Shown in pieces: positions 23,059 through 34,018 of a stretch of DNA of 36,589 bases (the stretch's first letter is position 1; every line of letters starts with the position of its first letter). This DNA comes from Candidatus Zixiibacteriota bacterium (GTDB lineage: Bacteria > Zixibacteria > MSB-5A5 > GN15 > FEB-12), in contig JBGSIV010000169.1 of NCBI GenBank assembly GCA_041742355.1, forward strand, positions 1 through 36,589, written 5' to 3'. The translations under genes and the position numbers were made by a program. Below the pieces are notes generated by a model. That model was given only the letters and a program-made list of their open reading frames with translations. It was not told the origin of the DNA and did not search any database.

Positions 23059-24177
23059 CTACAAATGTATCGGCCCGTCACCGTCACCGCGATTCACATG
23101 TACCCGTTCGAACGCCGCATCGCAACTCTCGATTGTCTTCGTCAGATCTCGCGAGGTCGCCAGCACGAAATTCGATGGTCCGACCAGAAAGCCGCTGTTG
23201 GCTAACGCCGAACACCACCACGGGTGCGCCTGGTTCGACACTACGAGGTCCACTCCCCGCTCCTCCAGAAAATCCGTCGCCCCGCCAATCACGGCATCCG
23301 CATGTTCGGGTGCGGCGAAACAGTCGGCGATTGTTCCGACCCGCATGCTGCCGAACTGCTTGTGGTCTTTCATCTGTGTATCGAGCACTACTACCCAGCC
23401 CGCCGGACGGCCATCGACCTGCACCAGCAGCCGGTAGTACCGTTTGCTCTCGCCCGGATACAAGACGGTCAGCACCGGTTTGTTGCGCACCGCGACAAAC
23501 GAGTAGTCCGCGCCATGCGCCTGCCACACCTCGTTGGCCCACTGGTCGAATTCGGTTACCACCTCGGTGCTCGCCCGCCCGAGACGGGTGCGTTTCTTCC
23601 TGCGCGAGGCCTGCAGCGACAGGATCCCCAGCGGCCCGACTCCGGTGGCCGACGCCACGGTGCTCAGGAGACGCCATGCGGGACGCTCCCGCAGCAGACT
23701 CAGATTGCGCAGAAACGACTGCGGATGGCACACGCGGAAATGAAATGGCACCGTCTGCACCCGCCACCCCATCGCGGAGAGCATCTTCGGCAACGGACGG
23801 TCCTTCCCGCCCATCCCGAGGGCATAGAGCAACTTCTGGCGCTGGAGCGCATGGGTCAACAGCAGCATGGCAACCGTCGCGTAAGCCTTGTCGATCGTTC
23901 CCTCCGACAGCGGCAGCTGATAGTTGCCGATCTCTTGCACCGTCGTTCCGACGAGGAACTGCTGATGTTTCAGAATGTATCCCCCCCGCACCTTGTCATC
24001 CTCATCCACCGCGACGAAGTACTCCTGGTACAACGACCGCCCCTCAACCTTTGGCAGCCATTCGGGTACAATCGCATCTGGGAACTGGAAGCGCACCCCG
24101 CCCTGGCGCAACCGCCGATTAAACTGAGTGACTTCGAACACCCGATTTTCAGTGTACGGCTCGATCCTGATCTTCAT
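23059..24177 (-). CDS. GNAT/FemAB-like tandem acyltransferase-fold protein (putative)
   Basis: GNAT-like patterns (YFVAVDEDDKVRGGY; YRLLVQVDGRPAGWVV..GTIADCF..DAVIGGATDFL); GGAGG RBS before ATG 24177; no signal peptide. Confidence 0.6.
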   Translation of the reverse strand: MKIRIEPYTENRVFEVTQFNRRLRQGGVRFQFPDAIVPEWLPKVEGRSLYQEYFVAVDEDDKVRGGYILKHQQFLVGTTVQEIGNYQLPLSEGTIDKAYATVAMLLLTHALQRQKLLYALGMGGKDRPLPKMLSAMGWRVQTVPFHFRVCHPQSFLRNLSLLRERPAWRLLSTVASATGVGPLGILSLQASRRKKRTRLGRASTEVVTEFDQWANEVWQAHGADYSFVAVRNKPVLTVLYPGESKRYYRLLVQVDGRPAGWVVVLDTQMKDHKQFGSMRVGTIADCFAAPEHADAVIGGATDFLEERGVDLVVSNQAHPWWCSALANSGFLVGPSNFVLATSRDLTKTIESCDAAFERVHVNRGDGDGPIHL

Positions 24178-24196
24178 CGCCTCCACTCAATCCTTC

Positions 24197-25135
24197 TCAT
24201 GTCGCTCCGACCCGCAGCTTGTGTGACAACCACCGCCGCTCGAGATGCCGCCGCTCCGCATCGGTCAGGATGCGATCTCCGCGTTGCCGCCGAATGTAAT
24301 CCAGTAACTCGCCGACCGGCACAAACCATCCGGGCAACCTTCCGAGCCGCGTCATAAGCTCCGCGAAACGGCGATCCAGCGCCCCGTCCCGGACAAATCC
24401 GCACGCCAGGTGGGTGTACATGATGCACGCCCCTCCCTCGGCGACCAACTGATCCTGGCTTCTTTCACTGAGGCATCGCACAAACGACTCGATCTCTGGT
24501 CCCTCCGAGGATGCATACCAGTGGTTCACGAAGGGTCGACGGGGATCGTGGTACGGCATCATCGGGCAGGCGGCCAGCGTGTTGATATCCGGGAAGACGA
24601 AATTCCGCACGTACGTCACTCGCTCTTTGCACAGATCGGCCCAGTAGAGCGGGTCTCCCTCGATATGCCCGCGAAACTTGCGGTAGTGGTGAAAACGAGT
24701 CAGCGCGTTGTACGCCAGCCTTTGCGACCCCGACAGCCGGGCATCCCCCCAGTAGATATTCTCGCGGCAGGCGCTATGATTGGCCATTGTCTTCGGCGGC
24801 CCGCCGAACAGCCCGGCGAACGCATTGAGTCCCCGTCTGGTTTGCTCTCGATCCGATGTATGGTAGGTCGCCATGTGGTATCCGATCTCAAAGCCGTCGG
24901 CCTGCAACTCCTTCACCCAGCGAAGATAGTCCGGATTCTCACAGGTAGCCCCGCCGCATGAGGGGGCTTGGTCCCCTCTGATCGGCCAGACACTCTTGGT
25001 CGTGCGCATCCCCAGGTTGCGCAACAGTGCGTACACCGGTCCGACATTCGCCACGTCGGCGAAGTCCGTGTCGTCGAAGATCGTGAACGCGAATCGTTTG
25101 CCGTCTGGCCACGTGATTGCTGGAGGATACGTCAT
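24197..25135 (-). CDS. Polysaccharide deacetylase (NodB/CE4)-like protein
   Basis: WPDGKRFAFTIFDDTD, GFEIGYH, ANHS, IMYTH, WFVPVGELLDY. Confidence 0.75.
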   Translation of the reverse strand: MTYPPAITWPDGKRFAFTIFDDTDFADVANVGPVYALLRNLGMRTTKSVWPIRGDQAPSCGGATCENPDYLRWVKELQADGFEIGYHMATYHTSDREQTRRGLNAFAGLFGGPPKTMANHSACRENIYWGDARLSGSQRLAYNALTRFHHYRKFRGHIEGDPLYWADLCKERVTYVRNFVFPDINTLAACPMMPYHDPRRPFVNHWYASSEGPEIESFVRCLSERSQDQLVAEGGACIMYTHLACGFVRDGALDRRFAELMTRLGRLPGWFVPVGELLDYIRRQRGDRILTDAERRHLERRWLSHKLRVGAT

Positions 25136-25156
25136 AGTCTGGTGCGTGAATCCGTT

Positions 25157-26839
25157 CTACTGCTGAAGCGTGATAGGGGGCGGCACCGGGTAATCCGCGC
25201 TCGTGGACCAGCTGTATGTGCCCGTCGCCTGATCGAGCTTAAACGAGGAGGCAGCAAAGAAGTCCCGGCAAGGACCATTCTTCTCGGTCGCGATCGGCCG
25301 CGCCTCGACATAGGTCGCTCTTTGTGCCCGCGCCCAACTGATCGCCATGTGGAGCATTGTCTCCTCCACCTTCCGCCCCATCACCCGGCAGCTGAGGACG
25401 AAATCGACGATCTTCGCCCGGTCGCCATCCAGCTCGCAACTACAAATGCCGGTCAAGCCGGCATCGCCAAACTTGTCGGCCACCCGGAATGTCCACAGCC
25501 GGCGGCAGGGGTTCTCCAACCACGACTCCAACTCGGCCGCGGTCATCCGACGTGTGGTCAGGTTCATTTGATTTGTCTTGTTGAGCAGCTGCACTGCCCG
25601 CTCGCGGTTGGTGTCGTTCAGCGGTTCAACCGTGACTTGCATCTGAAGGCTCGCCAGCCAGTCGTCGACTGAGCCGATCGCACCCATCAGATCCTGCCGC
25701 CGGCGTTCCGCCGCGTACATCTGCGCGCGGTTGCGATCCTCGCCGGACACAGCTACCGTGTCGAAACAATCGAGCGCCTCGAGCGTCGACAGGTAGAGCA
25801 TCGGGTCGGTCGGCCATTCCGGCACCAGGACCTCCGGCAGCGTTGAACGCACCCGATCGCATTCGACCGGGTTGTCGTCGATGAAGACGACCGATTGCAA
25901 CCCGAGATTCAGTTCCGCAGTGAGCTCGGCAAGATTCTGTGCCTTGTCCGACCAGTTAATCCGCCAACCGGCGAAATGCTCGCGCCGGAGCACCATTTCT
26001 GGATGGTTGTCGATCGCTTCAAGCGCCGTCTCCTCGACATTCTTGCTTACGATTCCCAGTAGAATTCCCCGGTTCCTGAGTGCCTTCAGACCCCGCTGGA
26101 ACGAGGCAAAGGCTTCGCCGATCGGATCGTGTCCCCCGAGGCGGATCTGATCCCGACCGATATCGCCGAGAATTCCACCCCACAGGGTATCATCCAGGTC
26201 GACTACCACGAGCTTGCGTGATCGCCCGAAAGCGGCGTTCACTGCGGCCTTGAGCGCCGCCATCGCAGCGACAAACACGTCGTTGCCGAACGTCACCTTG
26301 CCCATGAACCACAACTTGGGATTACTTGCTCGCGGTCCCGCCTGCGCCATCCACCGCCCGGCATCGAGGAAAAAGGTATTGGATGAACCGGCCAGGCGTT
26401 CCGCCAGCCGCAGGTTCATCTGCATGAGTACTGCGGCGTGTCCCAGTCCTGGCTTCATATCCAGCAGACCGTACCCGCGGTGGTAGTGCGGCATCGTCCA
26501 GGTCGGCACAAGAGCCAGGCGAGTGCGATCGTGAATTCCCGTAACCTGATCGGCAAACCGATCGACCTCGGCAAGGATGTTCTCCAACGGAACGTCCTCA
26601 TAATCAAGCAGACGCGCGAACGATTCGCTCACCCGTTCGGGACGGGTCCAGATCATGGTGACATCAGGGCGGGGGCTCCACGCCGGATGGGCGGCGTTCA
26701 GCAGGACCGGCGCGACCTGCTCGTACGGCGCCGTTACCGCTTCAACAAGCGGCATGGCCTCGTCATTGGCCAGCAGACCGGCCAGGTTGTCAATGGTGAA
26801 GTCGGCGACAAGCAGACACCGCAGCCGTTCGGTGCTCAT
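25157..26839 (-). CDS. fkbH: FkbH-family HAD-IIIC glyceryl transferase/phosphatase
   Basis: VVDLDDTLWGG, SKN, INWSDK, VFIDDNPVE, KTNQMNLTT, DKFGDAG, LSCRVMGR; ATG 26839 overlaps the ACP stop (ATGA). Confidence 0.93.
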   Translation of the reverse strand: MSTERLRCLLVADFTIDNLAGLLANDEAMPLVEAVTAPYEQVAPVLLNAAHPAWSPRPDVTMIWTRPERVSESFARLLDYEDVPLENILAEVDRFADQVTGIHDRTRLALVPTWTMPHYHRGYGLLDMKPGLGHAAVLMQMNLRLAERLAGSSNTFFLDAGRWMAQAGPRASNPKLWFMGKVTFGNDVFVAAMAALKAAVNAAFGRSRKLVVVDLDDTLWGGILGDIGRDQIRLGGHDPIGEAFASFQRGLKALRNRGILLGIVSKNVEETALEAIDNHPEMVLRREHFAGWRINWSDKAQNLAELTAELNLGLQSVVFIDDNPVECDRVRSTLPEVLVPEWPTDPMLYLSTLEALDCFDTVAVSGEDRNRAQMYAAERRRQDLMGAIGSVDDWLASLQMQVTVEPLNDTNRERAVQLLNKTNQMNLTTRRMTAAELESWLENPCRRLWTFRVADKFGDAGLTGICSCELDGDRAKIVDFVLSCRVMGRKVEETMLHMAISWARAQRATYVEARPIATEKNGPCRDFFAASSFKLDQATGTYSWSTSADYPVPPPITLQQ

Positions 26840-27141
26840 CGCACCCCTCCCCCAAGCGCTCCCTCGATATATGTCGCCAGCGTTCCTACAGTCGTGAAGG
26901 GCCCGTTTTCCCGGGCCCATAAGTCGGCATCGGTCAAAGTCACACTCTCGCCGAAGGCATCCTCGATTCTCTGCTCCACGGCTACCACGAATGTAACCAG
27001 TTCCAGTGAGTCGAGGGCGCCGGATGCTCCGGTCAGCGCGGTTTTCTTATCGCGCGGCAGTCGGCGGTCGGAGGGACGCTGTCGATTCAGTTCGTCGAGC
27101 GCGGAGTATATCGCCTGGAGTGTTTTTTCGCTGACAGTCAT
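26836..27141 (-). CDS. Acyl carrier protein
   Basis: GALDSLELVTFVVAVEQRIEDAFG phosphopantetheine motif; about 101 aa; coupled to fkbH. Confidence 0.9.
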   Translation of the reverse strand: MTVSEKTLQAIYSALDELNRQRPSDRRLPRDKKTALTGASGALDSLELVTFVVAVEQRIEDAFGESVTLTDADLWARENGPFTTVGTLATYIEGALGGGVR

Positions 27142-27254
27142 GGCCGTTCTTCGTTGTGCCGCCGGTCCCACACCGGACAGCCACGGCCAATCTACGCAAC
27201 ACCCCTCCGGTTGTCACGCGAAATAAGCCTCCGCACACTGGGGGAAATGGAACC

Positions 27255-27282
27255 TTGACAGCGGCTTCCGGTTTAGTAGCTT
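27255..27282 (+). promoter_or_regulatory. sigma70 promoter; predicted TSS at or near ATG 27289 (leaderless)
   Basis: TTGACA-16 bp-TAGCTT, ATG 6 nt downstream, no SD. Confidence 0.6.
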
Positions 27283-27288
27283 GTACTC

Positions 27289-27588
27289 ATGCTGCGACCA
27301 AGTACAAGCATATCCGGTAAAGCGCTGCTGCGCGTCTTGCTGGTAGCCCTGCTGCTGTCAGGATTCGTCGTCATGCTGCACCATGCCGCGCATTGCGACC
27401 ATCCCGGCAGCGACTGCTCCATTTGCAGCCTGCTTGGCTCGATTGTTGTCATCGCTGCGGTCGGATTGATCGTAATCTGTTCGCCGGCAAAGCCGATCCG
27501 CCATCATTTGTCGCGTGCTCACGTGCAGACGACCGGCCTGCCTCACCGTCCCGTTCGCGCCCCTCCGTCGATTCACTTTCCGTCCTGA
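27289..27588 (+). CDS. DUF2946-like regulatory leader protein with His/CxxC motif and C-terminal RAPP
   Basis: N-terminal hydrophobic segment, HHAAHCDHPGSDCSIC, second hydrophobic stretch, RAPP 5 residues before the stop; directly upstream of metal-uptake genes. Confidence 0.78.
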   Translation: MLRPSTSISGKALLRVLLVALLLSGFVVMLHHAAHCDHPGSDCSICSLLGSIVVIAAVGLIVICSPAKPIRHHLSRAHVQTTGLPHRPVRAPPSIHFPS

Positions 27589-27659
27589 CAATTTCACCCT
27601 GACGGACCATCCCTAATATCCGCTGCAGCCACTGTGTGCCGCAGCTAGCGGAGGATCGC

Positions 27660-28796
27660 ATGCGACCACTCTTGATCGCGGCCGCCGTCTGCCTTCTCGC
27701 GCTCGGCGCCGCCGCCCAGACTATGAAGAACCCTGAAATCTCCCTGATTGGTGATATACGCGCGTTCTCTCACAACGACACGACCCGGCCGGATGAACAC
27801 GAGGCTCTCAACCTGAGCGACCCCGAAATCGAGCTATTTGTCTCCGGCTACCTCAACCCGTATGCCCGCGCGGCAGCGGCTATCGCCTGGCATACGGGTA
27901 CCAACGCTGAGATTGAGGAGGCCTACGCCGAGTTCGTCCGCGGCCTTCCGCTCGGCGCGCAGCTGCGCGCCGGCAAGTACCTGCTGGAGTTCGGTCGGCT
28001 CAATCCGATTCACCCGCACGCCTGGTCGTTTGTGAAGCGCCCCCTCCCGCACGAGCACTTCTTCGGCGACCACGGACTGAACGACATGGCGATCCGCGCG
28101 TCGTTTCTGCTCCCCACCGGTTCGGCCTACACCGAGTTGATGGGGGCTGTGCTCAAGGGAGACGCTCTGGCAGGTCACGAGCATAAGCATGAGGGGACCG
28201 GTGAAGAGACCGGCCACGACGACGAACGCCTCGACCCCGCTTTCTTCGGCCGCCTGACCACCTCCCTGGCGACCGACGAGTTTTCCGAACTGGCTCTCGG
28301 CGTTTCCGTGCTCAATGCCGTCTACAGTGAGGCAGAACACGATGATGAACTGGTATTCCAGGCGGAGGAACCTGACTTCCTGCGCGCCTGGGTGACCGGT
28401 TTTGACCTCAAGTACAAGCGCAAGCCCTCGCGCCACAGCTCGCTGCAAATCGAGGCCGAAGCCCTCCGGCGTTCGAATGAAATGAGCGAGGGTGATCGTC
28501 TCAACTCGTACGGCGCCTACGGCTACCTCGACTACCGCTTCCGCCAGCGCTACAACGCCGGCGGCATATTCGAGTATGTCTCCGAGGAATCGCTCCACGA
28601 GGACCTCGGTGAGACCGTCGTCGAATCAGCCGACCTCTGGCGCGCCGGGCTCTTTGTCGGTTTCGCCCCGGTCGAGGAGACATCACTGATCCGCCTCGCC
28701 GGCCACTGGGCCGAAGCCGAGGACGCCGACGGCTTCTGGGAACTCACCCTCCAGCTGGTCTTCTCTCTCGGCCCGCACCAACCGCACAACTTTTGA
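27660..28796 (+). CDS. His-rich outer-membrane beta-barrel (porin-like metal-uptake protein)
   Basis: Signal peptide, EEAY, RAGK..LEFGRLN..HPH, GHEHKHE loop, C-terminal LQLVFSLGPHQPHNF; GGAGG RBS before ATG 27660. Confidence 0.78.
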   Translation: MRPLLIAAAVCLLALGAAAQTMKNPEISLIGDIRAFSHNDTTRPDEHEALNLSDPEIELFVSGYLNPYARAAAAIAWHTGTNAEIEEAYAEFVRGLPLGAQLRAGKYLLEFGRLNPIHPHAWSFVKRPLPHEHFFGDHGLNDMAIRASFLLPTGSAYTELMGAVLKGDALAGHEHKHEGTGEETGHDDERLDPAFFGRLTTSLATDEFSELALGVSVLNAVYSEAEHDDELVFQAEEPDFLRAWVTGFDLKYKRKPSRHSSLQIEAEALRRSNEMSEGDRLNSYGAYGYLDYRFRQRYNAGGIFEYVSEESLHEDLGETVVESADLWRAGLFVGFAPVEETSLIRLAGHWAEAEDADGFWELTLQLVFSLGPHQPHNF

Positions 28797-28809
28797 CCGG
28801 AGTGATGCT

Positions 28810-29697
28810 GTGAAATTCTCTCACCTGTACATACTGCCGGCGCTTCTGCTGCTCTCGGGGGCGGCAGACGCCCGCACCCAGGTAGTAGCCTCGACTGCCG
28901 ACCTCGCCTACTACGCCCGCCAGATCGGCGGCCAACATGTTGAAGCCGAAGCTATCGCTTCACCCAAGGCCGACGTCCATTTCGTTGAGGTGCGCCCGAG
29001 CTACATGATGAAGGTCAGCCGGGCCGATGTGGTCCTCAAGATTGGCATGGAACTGGATACCTGGATGGACGGGATCATCGACGGCTCCCGGAACGGCTCG
29101 GTCAGGATTGTCGATTGCTCGAAATACATCGAGCCGCTCGAGGTTCCCGCCGCCGATGCCGATGCCCGCCACGGCGATCTGCACCGTCAGGGGAATCCGC
29201 ACTACTGGCTGGGGCCCCAGAACCTCCTGGCCATTACCCGCGCGATCACCGAAGGTCTCTCGGCCGCGGACCCGGCCCATGCGACCGACTTCTCTGCCAA
29301 CCAGCAACGATTCATAGAGCAGGTCGAGGCCGGCCTGGCGGCGCTAAAGTGGAAGACCGAACTACTCCGCGGCACGTCTGTCGTCTTCTACCACAACTCC
29401 TGGCCGTACTTCAACGCGTATGTCGGCCTGGATGCCGCCGGGTTCGTGGAACCATTTCCCGGTGTGCCCCCTTCGCCCTCGCACATTAAAAGCCTGACCG
29501 TGCTTGTCCGGGAACGATCTATTCCCCTGATCGCGATAGAACCGTACTTCGATGACCGTGTACCCCGAAAGATCACCTCCGAAACGGGCGGCCGGATCGT
29601 TACGCTGTATCCATCGATCGGGGGAGGGAGATCCGACGAAACGTATTTGGAGTGGTTCGAGGGGAATCTCGATGCCCTCGCGGGAGCAGCCGAGTGA
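28810..29697 (+). CDS. Metal ABC transporter substrate-binding protein (ZnuA/TroA family)
   Basis: DVHFVE, HGDLH..GNPHYWL, YHNSWPYF, PGVPPSPSH. Confidence 0.92.
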   Translation: MKFSHLYILPALLLLSGAADARTQVVASTADLAYYARQIGGQHVEAEAIASPKADVHFVEVRPSYMMKVSRADVVLKIGMELDTWMDGIIDGSRNGSVRIVDCSKYIEPLEVPAADADARHGDLHRQGNPHYWLGPQNLLAITRAITEGLSAADPAHATDFSANQQRFIEQVEAGLAALKWKTELLRGTSVVFYHNSWPYFNAYVGLDAAGFVEPFPGVPPSPSHIKSLTVLVRERSIPLIAIEPYFDDRVPRKITSETGGRIVTLYPSIGGGRSDETYLEWFEGNLDALAGAAE

Positions 29698-30497
29698 GCG
29701 ACTACCTTCACTTTCTGCTCTGGCCGTTTCTGGCCGGACTCGTCCTGGTCGGTATCCACGTCTACTTCGGCTTGCATGTGATCAAACGCGGCATCATCTT
29801 CGTCGATCTGTCTCTGGCTCAGGTTGCAGCGCTGGGGGTAACCCTGGCGCTGCTGCTCGAGTTCGATCCGGACGGCGTCACCTCCTACTTCTTTTCGCTC
29901 ACCTTCGCACTGGTCGGCGCCACGATTTTCACCTTCACGCGCAATGTCGAGGGCCGTGTGCCGCAGGAGGCCTTCATTGGCATCGTCTACGCTGTTAGTT
30001 CCGCCGCCGCGATTCTCCTGGTAAGCCATTCCCCTGAAGGGGCCGAGCACATCCGCCACCTGCTCGTCGGCAGTCTCCTGACCGTTTCCCCGGCTGCCGT
30101 TCTGAAAACCGCCGCTGTGTACGCCGCGGTCGGCGCTGTCCACTGGTTCGCCCGGAGGCACTTCCTTGCCCTGACCTTCAACCATGGGGGCGGGGGAGTT
30201 CGGACTCGCCTGTGGGACTTTCTGTTCTATGCCACCTTTGCTGTGGTGGTAACCTCGTCGGTGAAGATCTGCGGCGTGCTGCTGGTTTTTATCTTCCTTG
30301 TGGTGCCCTCAGTTTTTGCGGCGCTCATTACCGACAGCATTGCCCGGCGGCTCATCTATGGCTGGATATTCGCGATCATCGGGACGGCGGCGGGGCTGGT
30401 CTTGTCCTTCTATCTGGACACGCCGACGGGGGCGACGATCGTGTGTACGTTCGGTCTGATGTTGCCCGGGGCGATGGTGATACGGCCTGGTCGTTGA
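29694..30497 (+). CDS. Metal ABC transporter permease (ZnuB/ABC-3 family)
   Basis: GLHVIKRGIIFVDLSLAQVAALG, QEAFIGIVY, LLVGSLL, GVLLVFIFLVVP, DTPTGATIV; GTG start overlapping the SBP stop. Confidence 0.9.
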   Translation: MSDYLHFLLWPFLAGLVLVGIHVYFGLHVIKRGIIFVDLSLAQVAALGVTLALLLEFDPDGVTSYFFSLTFALVGATIFTFTRNVEGRVPQEAFIGIVYAVSSAAAILLVSHSPEGAEHIRHLLVGSLLTVSPAAVLKTAAVYAAVGAVHWFARRHFLALTFNHGGGGVRTRLWDFLFYATFAVVVTSSVKICGVLLVFIFLVVPSVFAALITDSIARRLIYGWIFAIIGTAAGLVLSFYLDTPTGATIVCTFGLMLPGAMVIRPGR

Positions 30498-30543
30498 GGG
30501 GACTCTGTCGGGTCTTCGGCTGACAGCCCCTGGCGCAGGAAAT

Positions 30544-30563
30544 GCAATTTGTTAACGAATTGC
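30544..30563. promoter_or_regulatory. Near-perfect 20-bp palindrome, candidate operator
   Basis: GCAATTTGTT|AACGAATTGC (9/10 symmetric), 9 bp upstream of a -35 box. Confidence 0.55.
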
Positions 30564-30572
30564 TTGCCCCAT

Positions 30573-30601
30573 TTGACTTTCGCCGCCGAATACCATATGT
30601 T
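30573..30601 (+). promoter_or_regulatory. sigma70 promoter of the DUF6754 operon (leaderless)
   Basis: TTGACT-17 bp-TATGTT, GTG start 5 nt downstream. Confidence 0.6.
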
Positions 30602-30606
30602 CCGTC

Positions 30607-31485
30607 GTGCGGATATCAAGACTACAGGCCTTCTGGCACAGCACCATCACCCTCGGCACGCTCATTCTGGCCGACTGGTCTTCTGTCGCCGCCCAGGAAG
30701 CCGAGCGCCAGCTCTTCCGCACTGACCGGATCAACGCTCTCCTGTTTCTGCTGATCTTCTCCTCGGCTGTCCTCCTCTACACCCGCTGGGCCCGGCAGGG
30801 AAAACCCCTCTTTGTCCGCAAGATCGCCGGGCTGGATGCGCTGGAGGAAGCAGTCGGCCGCGCCACCGAGATGGGCCGCCCGGTCCTCTATATCCCCGGC
30901 ATTCTCGAACTCGATGATATCCAGACTATCGCCAGCATATCGATCCTCGGCCGAGTCGCCAAGGTGACCGCCCAATACGAGACCCCCCTCCATGTCCCGG
31001 TGCGTTACCCCCTCGTGCTGGCCGCCGGACAGGAGATTGTCGCCCAGGCGTATGCCGAGGCCGGACGGCCGGATGCCTACGATAAAGACATGGTCCGCTA
31101 CGTGGCCGGTGAGCAGTTCGCCTTCACTGCCAATGTAAACGGCTACATGGTCCGCGAGCGGCCGGCCACCAACATATATATGGGCGGTTTTTTTGCCGAA
31201 TCCCTCATCCTTGCCGAGACCGGCAACGCGGCCGGCTCGATCCAGATCGCCGGAACCGCCGAGGCGTCGCAGCTGCCGTTTTTTGTCGCCGCCTGCGACT
31301 ACACCCTCATGGGCGAGGAGCTCTACGCAGCGTCGGCTTATCTCTCCCACGAGCCGATTATGCTCGGTGGACTCAAAGGGCAGGACTTCGTAAAGATGCT
31401 GCTCATAATTGCCATCATCGTTGGCGTTCTGCTGACCGCTTTCGGGTTCGGCGAAACCTATCTCGAATGGTTCGAGTCAGTCTGA
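30607..31485 (+). CDS. DUF6754 domain membrane protein
   Basis: RKIAGLDALEEAVGRATEMGRPVLY, FFAESLILAETG..AGSIQIAGT, QLPFF, LMGEELYAASAYLS recalled as DUF6754; flanking TMs. Confidence 0.8.
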   Translation: MRISRLQAFWHSTITLGTLILADWSSVAAQEAERQLFRTDRINALLFLLIFSSAVLLYTRWARQGKPLFVRKIAGLDALEEAVGRATEMGRPVLYIPGILELDDIQTIASISILGRVAKVTAQYETPLHVPVRYPLVLAAGQEIVAQAYAEAGRPDAYDKDMVRYVAGEQFAFTANVNGYMVRERPATNIYMGGFFAESLILAETGNAAGSIQIAGTAEASQLPFFVAACDYTLMGEELYAASAYLSHEPIMLGGLKGQDFVKMLLIIAIIVGVLLTAFGFGETYLEWFESV

Positions 31486-31505
31486 GGAACAGCCGGTAAC
31501 AGCCC

Positions 31506-32165
31506 ATGAGAACAACCCTCCCCCTTACAGTCGCTTTCGTCACCGGCCTGATCTTTGTCGTCTCGTTCTTCTTCGCCGAGGACTCGATTATTGGCCAGGC
31601 TTCGGGGACCCTGCAGGTCTGGGTCTCGATCATCGGCGGCTTCACCCTTCTGCTCGGTGTCGTTTCGATTGTCCGGGTCAATTGGTCGGCCGTTTCGCGC
31701 CGCCGTCCCGGCTGGGTCTATCGTCTCTGCACCCTGGTTTCTGTCTTCGTGATGGCGATCCCGGCCCTCCTGCCGTCCTCGTGGTCCCCGCTCTTCGGAC
31801 GCGGCGAGGGTTCGGTGTACGACTGGCTCTTCCTCTACCTCGACAGCCCCATGATGGCCACCATGTTCGCCATGCTGGCCTTTTATATCGCTTCGGCCGC
31901 CTACCGGGCGTTCCGCGCCCGCAGCGGCGAGTCCACGGTCCTGTTGCTCACCGCCGTGATCGTCATGCTCTGGCGCGTCCCCATGGGCGAGGCCTTCCTG
32001 AACCTCTTCCCCGGCGACATTCCGCAGTGGCTCAACACGTACGTGATGCGCGGCGTCAATGTCGCCGTCCAGCGCGGCATCCTGATCGGCGCCGCTCTCG
32101 GCGCGGCTTCGATGTCCCTGCGCATCATCCTCGGTATCGAACGAACCTACATGGGGAAGGGCTGA
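31506..32165 (+). CDS. Conserved hypothetical polytopic membrane protein (DUF6754 cluster)
   Basis: About six hydrophobic segments; FYIASAAYRAFR and RGILIGAALG motifs; 20 bp after the previous gene. Confidence 0.82.
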   Translation: MRTTLPLTVAFVTGLIFVVSFFFAEDSIIGQASGTLQVWVSIIGGFTLLLGVVSIVRVNWSAVSRRRPGWVYRLCTLVSVFVMAIPALLPSSWSPLFGRGEGSVYDWLFLYLDSPMMATMFAMLAFYIASAAYRAFRARSGESTVLLLTAVIVMLWRVPMGEAFLNLFPGDIPQWLNTYVMRGVNVAVQRGILIGAALGAASMSLRIILGIERTYMGKG

Positions 32166-32168
32166 GCC

Positions 32169-33005
32169 ATGGCGTTCTGGACCAGAGTTGAAAAGATGGA
32201 TCGCCGCTGGATCTACCTCATGGTCATTATCGCGGTGATCATCCCCTTCATCATTCAGGCCAAGTTTCCGGTGAGCATCACCCAGGAGTCCCGCCTGCTG
32301 TACGAGTATGTGGAGGGGTTGCCCAACGGCAGTGTCGTTATGCTGGTTTTCGACTACTATCCCTCGACCATCGCCGAGTGTGAACCGATGACCCGCACCG
32401 CCCTGCACCACCTTTTCCGCAAGGACTGCAAGGTTATCACGCTCAGTAACATCCCCCTTGGCGGCCCCACGATGGCCGAATCGGTCACGCGCGAGATGGC
32501 CCAGTTGTACGGCAAGGTTTACGGCACCGATTTTGTCAACCTGGGCTACAAGGCCGACTACGTGGCCGTTCTCCGCGGCATGGGCTACTCGATCAAGGAC
32601 ATCTTCCCCGCCGACTACTCCGGCACGCCGCTGGATTCACTGCCCCTGATGCAGAAGGTCAAGAACTACGCCGATGTCGCCTTTATCTTCGAGGTCGCGG
32701 ACAACGCCACCGCCGACTACTGGGCCTCGATCGTCAACGCGCAGTTCGGCGTGCCAATGGGCTGCGGCACCACTGCCGTCAGCGCTCCCCGCTACTACGC
32801 GTTCGTCTCTTCCGGCCAGTTTGTCGGCCTCCTCGGCGGCATGAAGGGCGCGGCCGAGTACGAGATGCTCGTCGGCCACCCCGATATGGCTTTCCGGGGT
32901 ATGGATGCCCAGTCGCTCGTCCACCTGCTCATTATCGGCCTCGTCATGCTCGGCAACGTCAGTTTCTTCATCAGCCGCCGCAACCGGTGGAGGAGCACCC
33001 CATGA
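32169..33005 (+). CDS. Hypothetical membrane protein with soluble alpha/beta domain between two TMs (DUF6754 cluster)
   Basis: N-terminal TM after DRR, YGTDFVNLGY, GLLGGMKGAAEYE, MDAQSLVH, C-terminal TM. Confidence 0.85.
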   Translation: MAFWTRVEKMDRRWIYLMVIIAVIIPFIIQAKFPVSITQESRLLYEYVEGLPNGSVVMLVFDYYPSTIAECEPMTRTALHHLFRKDCKVITLSNIPLGGPTMAESVTREMAQLYGKVYGTDFVNLGYKADYVAVLRGMGYSIKDIFPADYSGTPLDSLPLMQKVKNYADVAFIFEVADNATADYWASIVNAQFGVPMGCGTTAVSAPRYYAFVSSGQFVGLLGGMKGAAEYEMLVGHPDMAFRGMDAQSLVHLLIIGLVMLGNVSFFISRRNRWRSTP

Positions 33006-34018
33006 CCGGCATGGAAATCTTCCAGATCTGGATTATCGCCTTCTTCACTGTGGCACTGCTGTCCTTCCTCTATAAGGACAACCCCCTTTACCGCTTGGCC
33101 GAACACATCTTCGCCGGCCTGTCGGCCGGCTACTATGTCGGCCTGGTCTGGCACGAGGTGATCCTGCGGCAGCTCTGGACCCCGCTCCAGTCGGGCGGAC
33201 ACTGGATGCTCCTCATCCCGCTCCTGCTCGGCACGCTTATGTTCGGCCGATTCTTCCCCAAGTATGCCTGGATCTCGCGCACGCCGCTGGCGTTCGTCAT
33301 GGCCGTAACCGCCGGTATCTTCCTGATCTCCCAGCTTCACGGCATGGTCCTCCCGCAGGTTAAGGACACTATGTCTCCGAGTTTCGAACTGGTGGTGGTC
33401 GACTCCACGGGGTACGACACCTTCCCCGACCAGCTCGTTATTGTCGATAGCATCGCCCCGGATTCGCCGCCGGTCCAATCAGGCAACCTGCTGCTGAGCA
33501 AGCGGGATGTTGCCCGCACCGGCGACAGCGTGACCATCAGCACGACTTTTACCGACCCCGAAATGCCTACCGTGGATCGCCTCGCGTTCACCCTCAAACT
33601 CCGTTTGCCCGACGACTTGACGCATAAAGCGCTCGTTCTGGCGGGCGGTCCGACCGCTCCGGGCGTACAAATTATTGACAATGGCGGCGGATCGTACACA
33701 GCCAGCTACACGTATGTTCCGGATACTCTCCGGCCCGTCGGCCCATACGACATCTCGTACTCCGTTTCCCGCGCCGAGCGGGAACTCGCCCTGAACATCC
33801 TGGTCCTCCTTGGCGTCATCTCCACTCTGATCTACTTCTACTTCTCCAAGGAGCACACCGGCGCGCTCGGTGTCGGCGCCCGCGTCGGCATCTGGTTCAT
33901 CATGATCGGCTTCGGCGCTCACTTCGGCTACACGGTCATGGGCCGCGTCTCCCTCCTTATAGGACGGGTGCAGTTCCTCATCGACGACTGGCTGGGCTCG
34001 TTCCCCCACATATTCTAA
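33002..34018 (+). CDS. Hypothetical polytopic membrane protein with inserted beta-rich loop domain (DUF6754 cluster)
   Basis: SFLYKDNPLYRLAEHIFAG, YFYFS, MIGFGAHFGYTVMGR; ATGA overlap with the previous gene. Confidence 0.85.
   Translation: MTGMEIFQIWIIAFFTVALLSFLYKDNPLYRLAEHIFAGLSAGYYVGLVWHEVILRQLWTPLQSGGHWMLLIPLLLGTLMFGRFFPKYAWISRTPLAFVMAVTAGIFLISQLHGMVLPQVKDTMSPSFELVVVDSTGYDTFPDQLVIVDSIAPDSPPVQSGNLLLSKRDVARTGDSVTISTTFTDPEMPTVDRLAFTLKLRLPDDLTHKALVLAGGPTAPGVQIIDNGGGSYTASYTYVPDTLRPVGPYDISYSVSRAERELALNILVLLGVISTLIYFYFSKEHTGALGVGARVGIWFIMIGFGAHFGYTVMGRVSLLIGRVQFLIDDWLGSFPHIF

Follow-up and report, generated by a model that had tools for sequence, protein, structure and literature searches.

Does the small open reading frame in front of a porin-ZnuA-ZnuB-type operon work as a metal-sensing ribosome-arrest switch, and which metal would it sense? 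The question arises in a 36,589-nt stretch of DNA from a Candidatus Zixiibacteriota bacterium, called the window here. An initial annotation, made from the sequence alone, had described a 99-aa frame at 27289 with HHAAHCDH...CSIC and a C-terminal RAPP (27556-27567), ending 71 nt before the outer-membrane gene. All of these residues are present (H31, H32, H35, C36, H38 and C43-S-I-C46 in the ORF translation), and the gap is as given, with the leader stop ending at 27588 and the outer-membrane gene ATG at 27660. The N-terminus, read as export-signal-like, is basic and hydrophobic and does contain a membrane segment; the description is corrected by a second hydrophobic stretch between CxxC and RAPP. 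The features of the locus are listed in Table 1.

Table 1 Features of the leader and importer operon (window coordinates)
Feature	Position	Strand	Basis or remark
Sigma70-type promoter candidate, TTGACA-16 nt-TAGCTT	27255..27282	+	Ends 6 nt before leader ATG; top-ranked against 36 shifted positions
Leader ORF, 99 aa, ATG start; CruR/DUF2946-like arrest peptide candidate	27289..27588	+	Motifs, conservation, profile matches
Hydrophobic N-terminal helix (residues 10-35), either membrane anchor or export signal	27316..27393	+	Hydropathy, predicted helix
Candidate His2Cys2 metal site (H32, H35, C43, C46)	27382..27426	+	Conservation in 123 aligned homologs
RAPP arrest motif, R90-A-P-P93, 43 residues after CxxC	27556..27567	+	R90, P92, P93 invariant in 24 leaders
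Anti-Shine-Dalgarno strand in Pro-Pro codons	27562..27568	+	Predicted pairing with 27648-27654
Hairpin spanning leader stop codon, inside long-range helix	27579..27606	+	Predicted fold
Second intergenic hairpin; flanks can reach part of Shine-Dalgarno when stall site is covered	27622..27645	+	Predicted fold
Shine-Dalgarno GGAGG of outer-membrane gene	27650..27654	+	Sequence
Outer-membrane porin-like gene, 378 aa, His-rich	27660..28796	+	Weak BBP2 match; homology
ZnuA-family binding protein, three His ligands (H57, H131, H195), no fourth Asp	28810..29697	+	E=8e-56
ABC-3 (ZnuB-like) permease	29694..30497	+	E=1e-30; no ATPase gene follows

The leader is conserved in front of the outer-membrane gene

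In a six-frame scan of the whole 4.37-Mb assembly, a CxxC motif 20-70 residues before a C-terminal RAPP or RGPP occurs in one frame, the window leader. This uniqueness indicates that the combination exceeds chance; the control motif [AG][AG]PP gave three frames in the same scan, none of them at 39-48 residues from CxxC.

Of 61 genomes searched with the outer-membrane protein, 23 gave matches, two of which were weak, and a further search added five loci. Removal of the two weak, non-orthologous matches, two loci with too little upstream DNA and one duplicate reduced the resulting 29 loci to 24. A leader of the same build, with a membrane segment, a His cluster, CxxC and an RxPP end, precedes the outer-membrane gene in all 24 distinct loci, 23 being identified by pattern and one CxxY variant by hand. 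The initial annotation had proposed conservation upstream of orthologous operons as a test, and this is the outcome. The N-terminal hydrophobic segment is found in 24/24 leaders by hydropathy, CxxC in 23/24 and the second hydrophobic helix in just 14/24. The leaders share 14-28% identity with that of the window; C43, R90, P92 and P93 are invariant. The endings are RAPP (18), RSPP (2), RPPP (2) and RGPP (2), and the spacing from CxxC to RxPP in 23 leaders is 43 residues in 17, 42 in four, 44 in one and 45 in one. We regard the window leader as almost certainly a real gene.

In a second set of genomes, built around a Calditrichaceae genome, 52 of 81 have the outer-membrane gene. Among the 29 loci examined there, 24 have an RxPP leader, and three of the other five have a leader ending in HPP. 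The CxxC site varies in this set, as the spacing differs (43 in eight leaders, 48-50 in nine) and CxxC is absent in six. Three leaders (L110, L111, L113) end in DIFHPP rather than RAPP before the same outer-membrane family, a possible alternative arrest motif.

The leader profile matches 1,449 clusters (50% identity) at E<=0.001, which are not counted as zinc systems; judged by these profile matches, the leader device is widespread. Among the best 150 matches, 148 end in RxPP and 144 have a spacing of 42-46, the profile itself favouring such leaders. Nine further matches lie elsewhere in the 61-genome set, with gene types assigned by eye: six before TonB-dependent receptor-like genes, two before His-rich exported proteins and one that joins a split locus of genome G008. 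The receptor-like genes (L086, L088, L091-L094) belong to genomes without the porin operon. The exported proteins (L090 and L095, in G023 and G038) contain repeated His/Glu-rich modules, one with a dockerin-like segment at its end by eye, and are candidate surface metal scavengers.

A distant relative of DUF2946

In the Pfam search, DUF2946 (PF11162) is the one family common to the leader homologs. A DUF2946 search had also been proposed in the initial annotation, and its result is divided. The window leader reaches 9.1 bits (E=3, residues 34-93), below the Pfam cut-off of 23.7 bits, and was not found in a PF11162 search of the genome. Its homologs are related to the family, with 11/24 at E<=10 (best 4.3e-5) and, in the wider set, 37/123 at E<=0.01 (best 5.6e-8). 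PMC9426467 lists CxxC, a C-terminal RAPP, a spacing of 45 and an export signal as DUF2946 features. The window leader has the motifs, a spacing of 43, within 1-2 residues of 45, and the N-terminal hydrophobic segment. By these sequence features it is DUF2946-like, a distant DUF2946/CruR relative and not a member by score.

A candidate metal site outside the ribosome

Across 123 aligned leader homologs H32 and C43 are invariant, and H35 and C46 are at least 90% conserved. We infer that these four residues form a candidate metal-binding site. In a structure model of the leader (pLDDT 79, pTM 0.46) with helices at residues 10-35 and 44-64, the His pair lies at the end of the first helix and CxxC opens the second. 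A fold search with this model returned no matches at E<=0.001. The ribosome tunnel holds about 30 residues (PMC4571824). With 46-49 residues between it and the P site, CxxC would lie outside the tunnel, and we place it, by inference from this geometry, near the exit of the chain from the translocon. In an engineered system, a SecM stall is relieved when zinc drives folding (PMC4571824), a precedent for a pull on an arrest peptide.

The export segment of all leaders, and regulated products that are exported or membrane proteins, would also suit a monitor of secretion or periplasmic redox that responds to a SecM/ApdP-like translocon pull or a CxxC disulfide rather than to metal. PMC12992588 also describes RAPP leaders in front of sec and thioredoxin/DsbA genes. 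Since a secretion monitor would need neither the invariant His next to CxxC nor the constant link to metal import genes, we consider this reading very improbable.

The stall site is predicted to pair with the downstream Shine-Dalgarno region

In the predicted fold, the stall-site Pro-Pro codons (27562-27568) pair with the Shine-Dalgarno region of the porin-like gene (27648-27654). When RAPP peptides stall, the first Pro occupies the P site (PMC10951233; CruR in PMC12992588), so that a stalled ribosome would cover the anti-Shine-Dalgarno strand. The stall was mimicked in folding by masking 31 nt around the P site. Averaged over 24 loci, opening of the ribosome-binding site was eased by 3.9 kcal/mol, with more than 1 kcal/mol in 19 loci and less than 1 in five. 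The corresponding values were 0.6 kcal/mol after synonymous recoding (native higher in 22/24 loci), 1.3 kcal/mol with swapped intergenic regions (20/24) and -0.2 kcal/mol with a shifted mask (21/24); the loci are kin, and p-values of these tests are overstated. Replication in the second set was weaker (2.5 versus 0.8 kcal/mol, native higher in 15/22). CCT, giving CCUCC, serves as first Pro codon in 14/24 leaders, compared with 13% of Pro codons in porin genes; in the second set it does so in 9/22 against a background of 17%.

The window's ribosome-binding site costs 20.6 kcal/mol to open, matched by one of 120 other genes sampled from 345. With the stall site covered it still costs 14.7 kcal/mol, a value reached by 7 of the 120 baseline genes, as the site is in part closed again by a local hairpin. 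Opening of the downstream Shine-Dalgarno by the stall is thus found in the folding prediction with its three controls, and is partial in the window itself. Gating by a stalled leader ribosome is, on these models, probable, and the controlled support for it is added by the present analysis.

A different output is known from CruR, where the stall shields a Rho utilisation site and release allows Rho to end transcription (PMC9426467). If the same held here, metal release would lead to termination, and the pairing would be a by-product of C-rich sequence. C exceeds G at the leader 3' end in 23/24 loci. Absence of Rho from the lineage would rule out the CruR mechanism, an idea rejected because the gene is present in 59/61 genomes; rho was not found in the source assembly (94% complete), probably an assembly gap given its presence in 59/60 relatives. 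The C-rich leader ends and the distribution of Rho would suit the CruR mechanism as well. Composition alone would not make native pairs better than swapped intergenic regions in 20/24 loci, and the intergenic regions, 49-124 nt in 23/24 loci, are shorter than the 162 nt of CruR. We judge this reading, with the pairing as a by-product, quite unlikely; Rho-dependent control may nevertheless operate, and it and the Shine-Dalgarno output can coexist.

The promoter candidate ends 6 nt before the leader ATG, and the mRNA in the window is therefore likely leaderless, as far as the sequence indicates; this does not extend to leaders in general. A stock promoter scanner does not list the candidate, whose -10 element matches at 3/6 positions. 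With weights of our own, scores of at least 6 in a leaderless register were obtained for 9/24 leaders versus 0/24 porin starts, and leader scores beat shifted controls in 17/24 loci. Twenty of the 24 leaders have no preceding Shine-Dalgarno sequence. An Rfam scan of 26500-31000 gave no matches at E<=1, hence no known riboswitch in this interval. No terminator-like site was found between the leader and the porin gene, and no palindrome common to the regions upstream of the 24 leaders.

An importer operon without an ATPase gene

The downstream operon had been called porin-ZnuA-ZnuB type, and we identify a porin-like protein, a ZnuA-family protein and an ABC-3 permease. Named homologs of the outer-membrane protein come mostly from Zixibacteria, and the protein matched two plasmid-collection records. 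Its profile found no solved-structure relative, and a single-sequence prediction (pLDDT 36) does not establish the fold. The trio is present in 22/25 extended loci (21 distinct); of the others, two stop at contig ends and one has no binding protein. In this last locus (L046, in G029) leader and porin gene are intact, and the permease is a remnant.

A ZnuC query (tblastn) against the window and 27 loci, three of which end less than 450 nt from the permease, found nothing but one weak, unrelated ATPase. ZnuC-like matches at E<=1e-35 occur in 2/5 genomes; none occur in two near-complete genomes in which no permease but this one passes the cut-off. As read from these sequences, the importer operon is without an ATPase gene (window 27660-30497 and loci L036-L055).

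Three His ligands without an Asp at the fourth position are the zinc-type pattern in ZnuA-family binding proteins. This pattern is kept in 17/17 related loci that yield a full binding protein, and the three-His hallmark is stated in PMC3794297. The best solved-structure matches of the binding protein are Fe/Mn proteins and Zn proteins, all weak. Separate canonical znuA and znuCB genes lie elsewhere in the genome, znuA being cut by a contig end; their presence leaves room for another metal at the leader operon. Just before the canonical znuA, a small gene (L034:1023-1364) encodes a protein whose N-terminus looks CopG-like by eye and whose C-terminus is rich in Cys and His. It has no NCBIfam match and is a possible zinc regulator.

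After the permease, a DUF6754 gene and three membrane-protein genes without a known family occupy 30607-34018. They are probably a separate unit, as DUF6754 lies near the operon in just 2 of 25 other loci. On the other side, acyl-carrier-like, FkbH-like, deacetylase-like and acetyltransferase-like genes (23059-27141, minus strand; by eye, with weak Pfam matches) are transcribed away from the leader. At L029:284-2271, two genes upstream of the leader operon resemble larB and larC of nickel cofactor synthesis.

Zinc as the probable signal

In Vibrio campbellii a homologous trio stands behind a perfect Zur box, TGTTAT-N3-ATAACA, in the position that the leader takes in the window; there is no leader, and a leader profile search beside this trio found nothing. 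The V. parahaemolyticus operon omr-znuAII-znuBII (VP_RS21430-21420) is described as a predicted Zur regulon member and as induced 283-, 543- and 1034-fold under zinc limitation (PMC9817125, which cites earlier work for the operon). A ZnuA-subfamily gene of this species supports low-zinc growth (PMC3794297). We connect the two Vibrio operons by gene order and label. In Sulfurovum mangrovi the leader before the trio ends in HAPP, and a Zur box is absent.

No Zur box with fewer than three mismatches was found near the 24 leaders. None of 11 Fur-family proteins from six genomes scores best as Zur, with the proviso that the NCBIfam Zur model covers one lineage and a divergent Zur could escape; most of these proteins adjoin feo or catalase-like genes. 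Judged by sequence, the same transporter appears to be placed under two regulators, the leader and, at a single Vibrio locus, Zur. This contrast with the Zur-box version of the same operon is added by the present analysis.

The binding protein and permease score 112 and 91 bits against the Zur-box Vibrio trio, and 61 and 50 bits against the ZnuA and ZnuB of their own genome. Met-rich sites mark Cu(I) binders; in the 20 residues before CxxC, 146 homologs have on average 3.55 His and 0.16 Met. The initial annotation left the metal among Zn, Mn, Ni and Co; the evidence favours Zn, and Mn, Ni and Co less so. The sequences make zinc a reasonably probable signal.

The same arrest switch could respond to Ni, Co, Mn or Cu, or to several metals. 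Copper is what both tested members of the family sense, by way of Cys motifs; CutF-like leaders of the His-only kind stand before Ni/Co genes, and Ni/Co sensing was proposed for these leaders (PMC9973294). The canonical Znu system elsewhere in the genome and the Fe/Mn proteins among the weak structure matches point in the same direction. The related leaders before TonB-dependent receptors and His-rich exported proteins weigh against the zinc-importer reading. The greater nearness of the binding protein and permease to the Zur-box trio than to the genome's own ZnuA/ZnuB argues against another metal, as do a third ligand that is His and not Glu, the absence of Asp at the fourth position and the Met-poor leader loop. 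We consider another metal signal unlikely.

Proposed switch and its relation to known systems

On balance, we favour a leader that acts as a metal-sensing ribosome-arrest peptide and switches a zinc-type importer on under metal shortage. The metal-switch reading in the initial annotation gains from leader conservation, DUF2946 kinship and the operon genes; the window ORF falling short of the family cut-off weighs against it. The chances attached here to each step (gene, arrest, release, gating and zinc) are our own estimates, and the steps are interdependent.

The conserved leader heads the operon. A constitutive promoter would give a leaderless mRNA, and the leader would be translated at once, engaging the translocon through its first helix. 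The ribosome would then stall with Pro92 in the P site, as in the RAPP family; by this analogy, arrest at RAPP is very probable. By folding prediction and its statistics, the stalled ribosome would cover the CCUCCG strand that pairs with GGAGG of the porin-like gene, allowing the importer to be translated. Owing to the fixed spacer of 43 residues, H32, H35, C43 and C46 would come to lie just beyond the ribosome, probably in the periplasm. Metal would fold this site, the chain would be pulled and the stall released, and the helix would re-form and turn the importer off. We consider metal-responsive release likely. The metal would most likely be Zn(II), and the leader would do for the importer genes what Zur does in Vibrio.

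Metal could also act in the opposite direction, inducing the stall and turning the operon on as in a buffering or detoxifying system. This is how CutF operates, through a periplasmic site and a stem-loop that covers the Shine-Dalgarno sequence; the RNA arrangement predicted in the window is the same. The targets in the window are import components, the Vibrio counterparts are induced by zinc lack, and the RAPP of CruR arrests unaided (PMC12992588); we regard a metal-induced stall as most improbable.

The preferred switch, with release by metal, is closest to CruR of Bordetella pertussis (Bp2923, DUF2946; PMC9426467). Both leaders are the first gene of a metal import operon and have an export signal, CxxC, a C-terminal RAPP, a near-fixed spacing (45 in CruR, 43 here) and stalling that is expected to mean ON. 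CruR differs in being Cu-specific, with a TonB-dependent target, a 162-nt spacer and Rho-dependent termination; the window leader has a ZnuA-type target and a spacer of 71 nt, is predicted to gate the Shine-Dalgarno sequence, contains a conserved pair of His and scores below the DUF2946 cut-off. CutF of Rhodobacter capsulatus (PMC9973294, bioRxiv 2025.02.05.636593) is likewise described as an exported leader with a Cys metal motif whose stall opens a stem-loop over the next Shine-Dalgarno sequence. It has CxxxC and PPP motifs in place of CxxC and RAPP, its stalling is induced by Cu and its target is a detoxifying oxidase. SecM, ApdA and ApdP (PMC10951233) share the RAP/P arrest chemistry, whose motif is present in the window leader, as well as exposure of a downstream ribosome-binding site by the stall and release by pulling; they monitor protein export and are described without a metal site.

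On the importer side, the Vibrio omr-znuAII-znuBII operon likewise has an outer-membrane protein, a ZnuA-family protein and a permease and is listed without an ATPase (PMC9817125, PMC3794297). Its control differs, by Zur at a DNA box, and V. campbellii has no leader. The window-type loci fall outside a Zur regulon in having no Zur box (fewer than three mismatches, 24 loci) and no Zur-best Fur-family protein (six genomes). Canonical ZnuABC differs in that the window operon has no ATPase gene.

The initial annotation knew of no description of such a system. The supplement of PMC12992588 already lists, in at least nine rows, RAPP leaders of the same build before genes of this outer-membrane family with a zinc-regulated label, one of them annotated DUF2946. 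These rows form an automatic list with no mechanism or test, undiscussed in the main text, in which the words 'zinc' and 'ZnuA' are absent. Experimental tests of the family concern CruR and CutF and, in both cases, copper (PMC9426467, PMC9973294, bioRxiv 2025.02.05.636593). No paper on a zinc-sensing RAPP leader was found in the literature searched, which mostly excludes subscription papers.

The leader in the window is real and widely conserved, resembles the arrest leaders CruR and CutF and heads a zinc-type importer operon without an ATPase gene; its stalling and metal response are predicted. We tentatively extend this, at somewhat less than even odds, to a nascent-peptide zinc sensor. Its His2Cys2 site would fold on Zn(II) at the translocon, free the RAPP-stalled ribosome and close the anti-Shine-Dalgarno helix of the Pro-Pro codons. 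It would replace Zur for an ATPase-less importer across several little-studied phyla and report periplasmic, not cytoplasmic, zinc.

If the zinc version is true, this class of regulator can be retuned by metal and can replace a transcription factor on the same transporter. The switch is short and self-contained, at about 400 nt, and suits cell-free testing. With it, the conversion of metal binding into a pulling force on RAPP arrest could be studied directly. The leader could explain how zinc uptake is controlled in lineages without an evident Zur.
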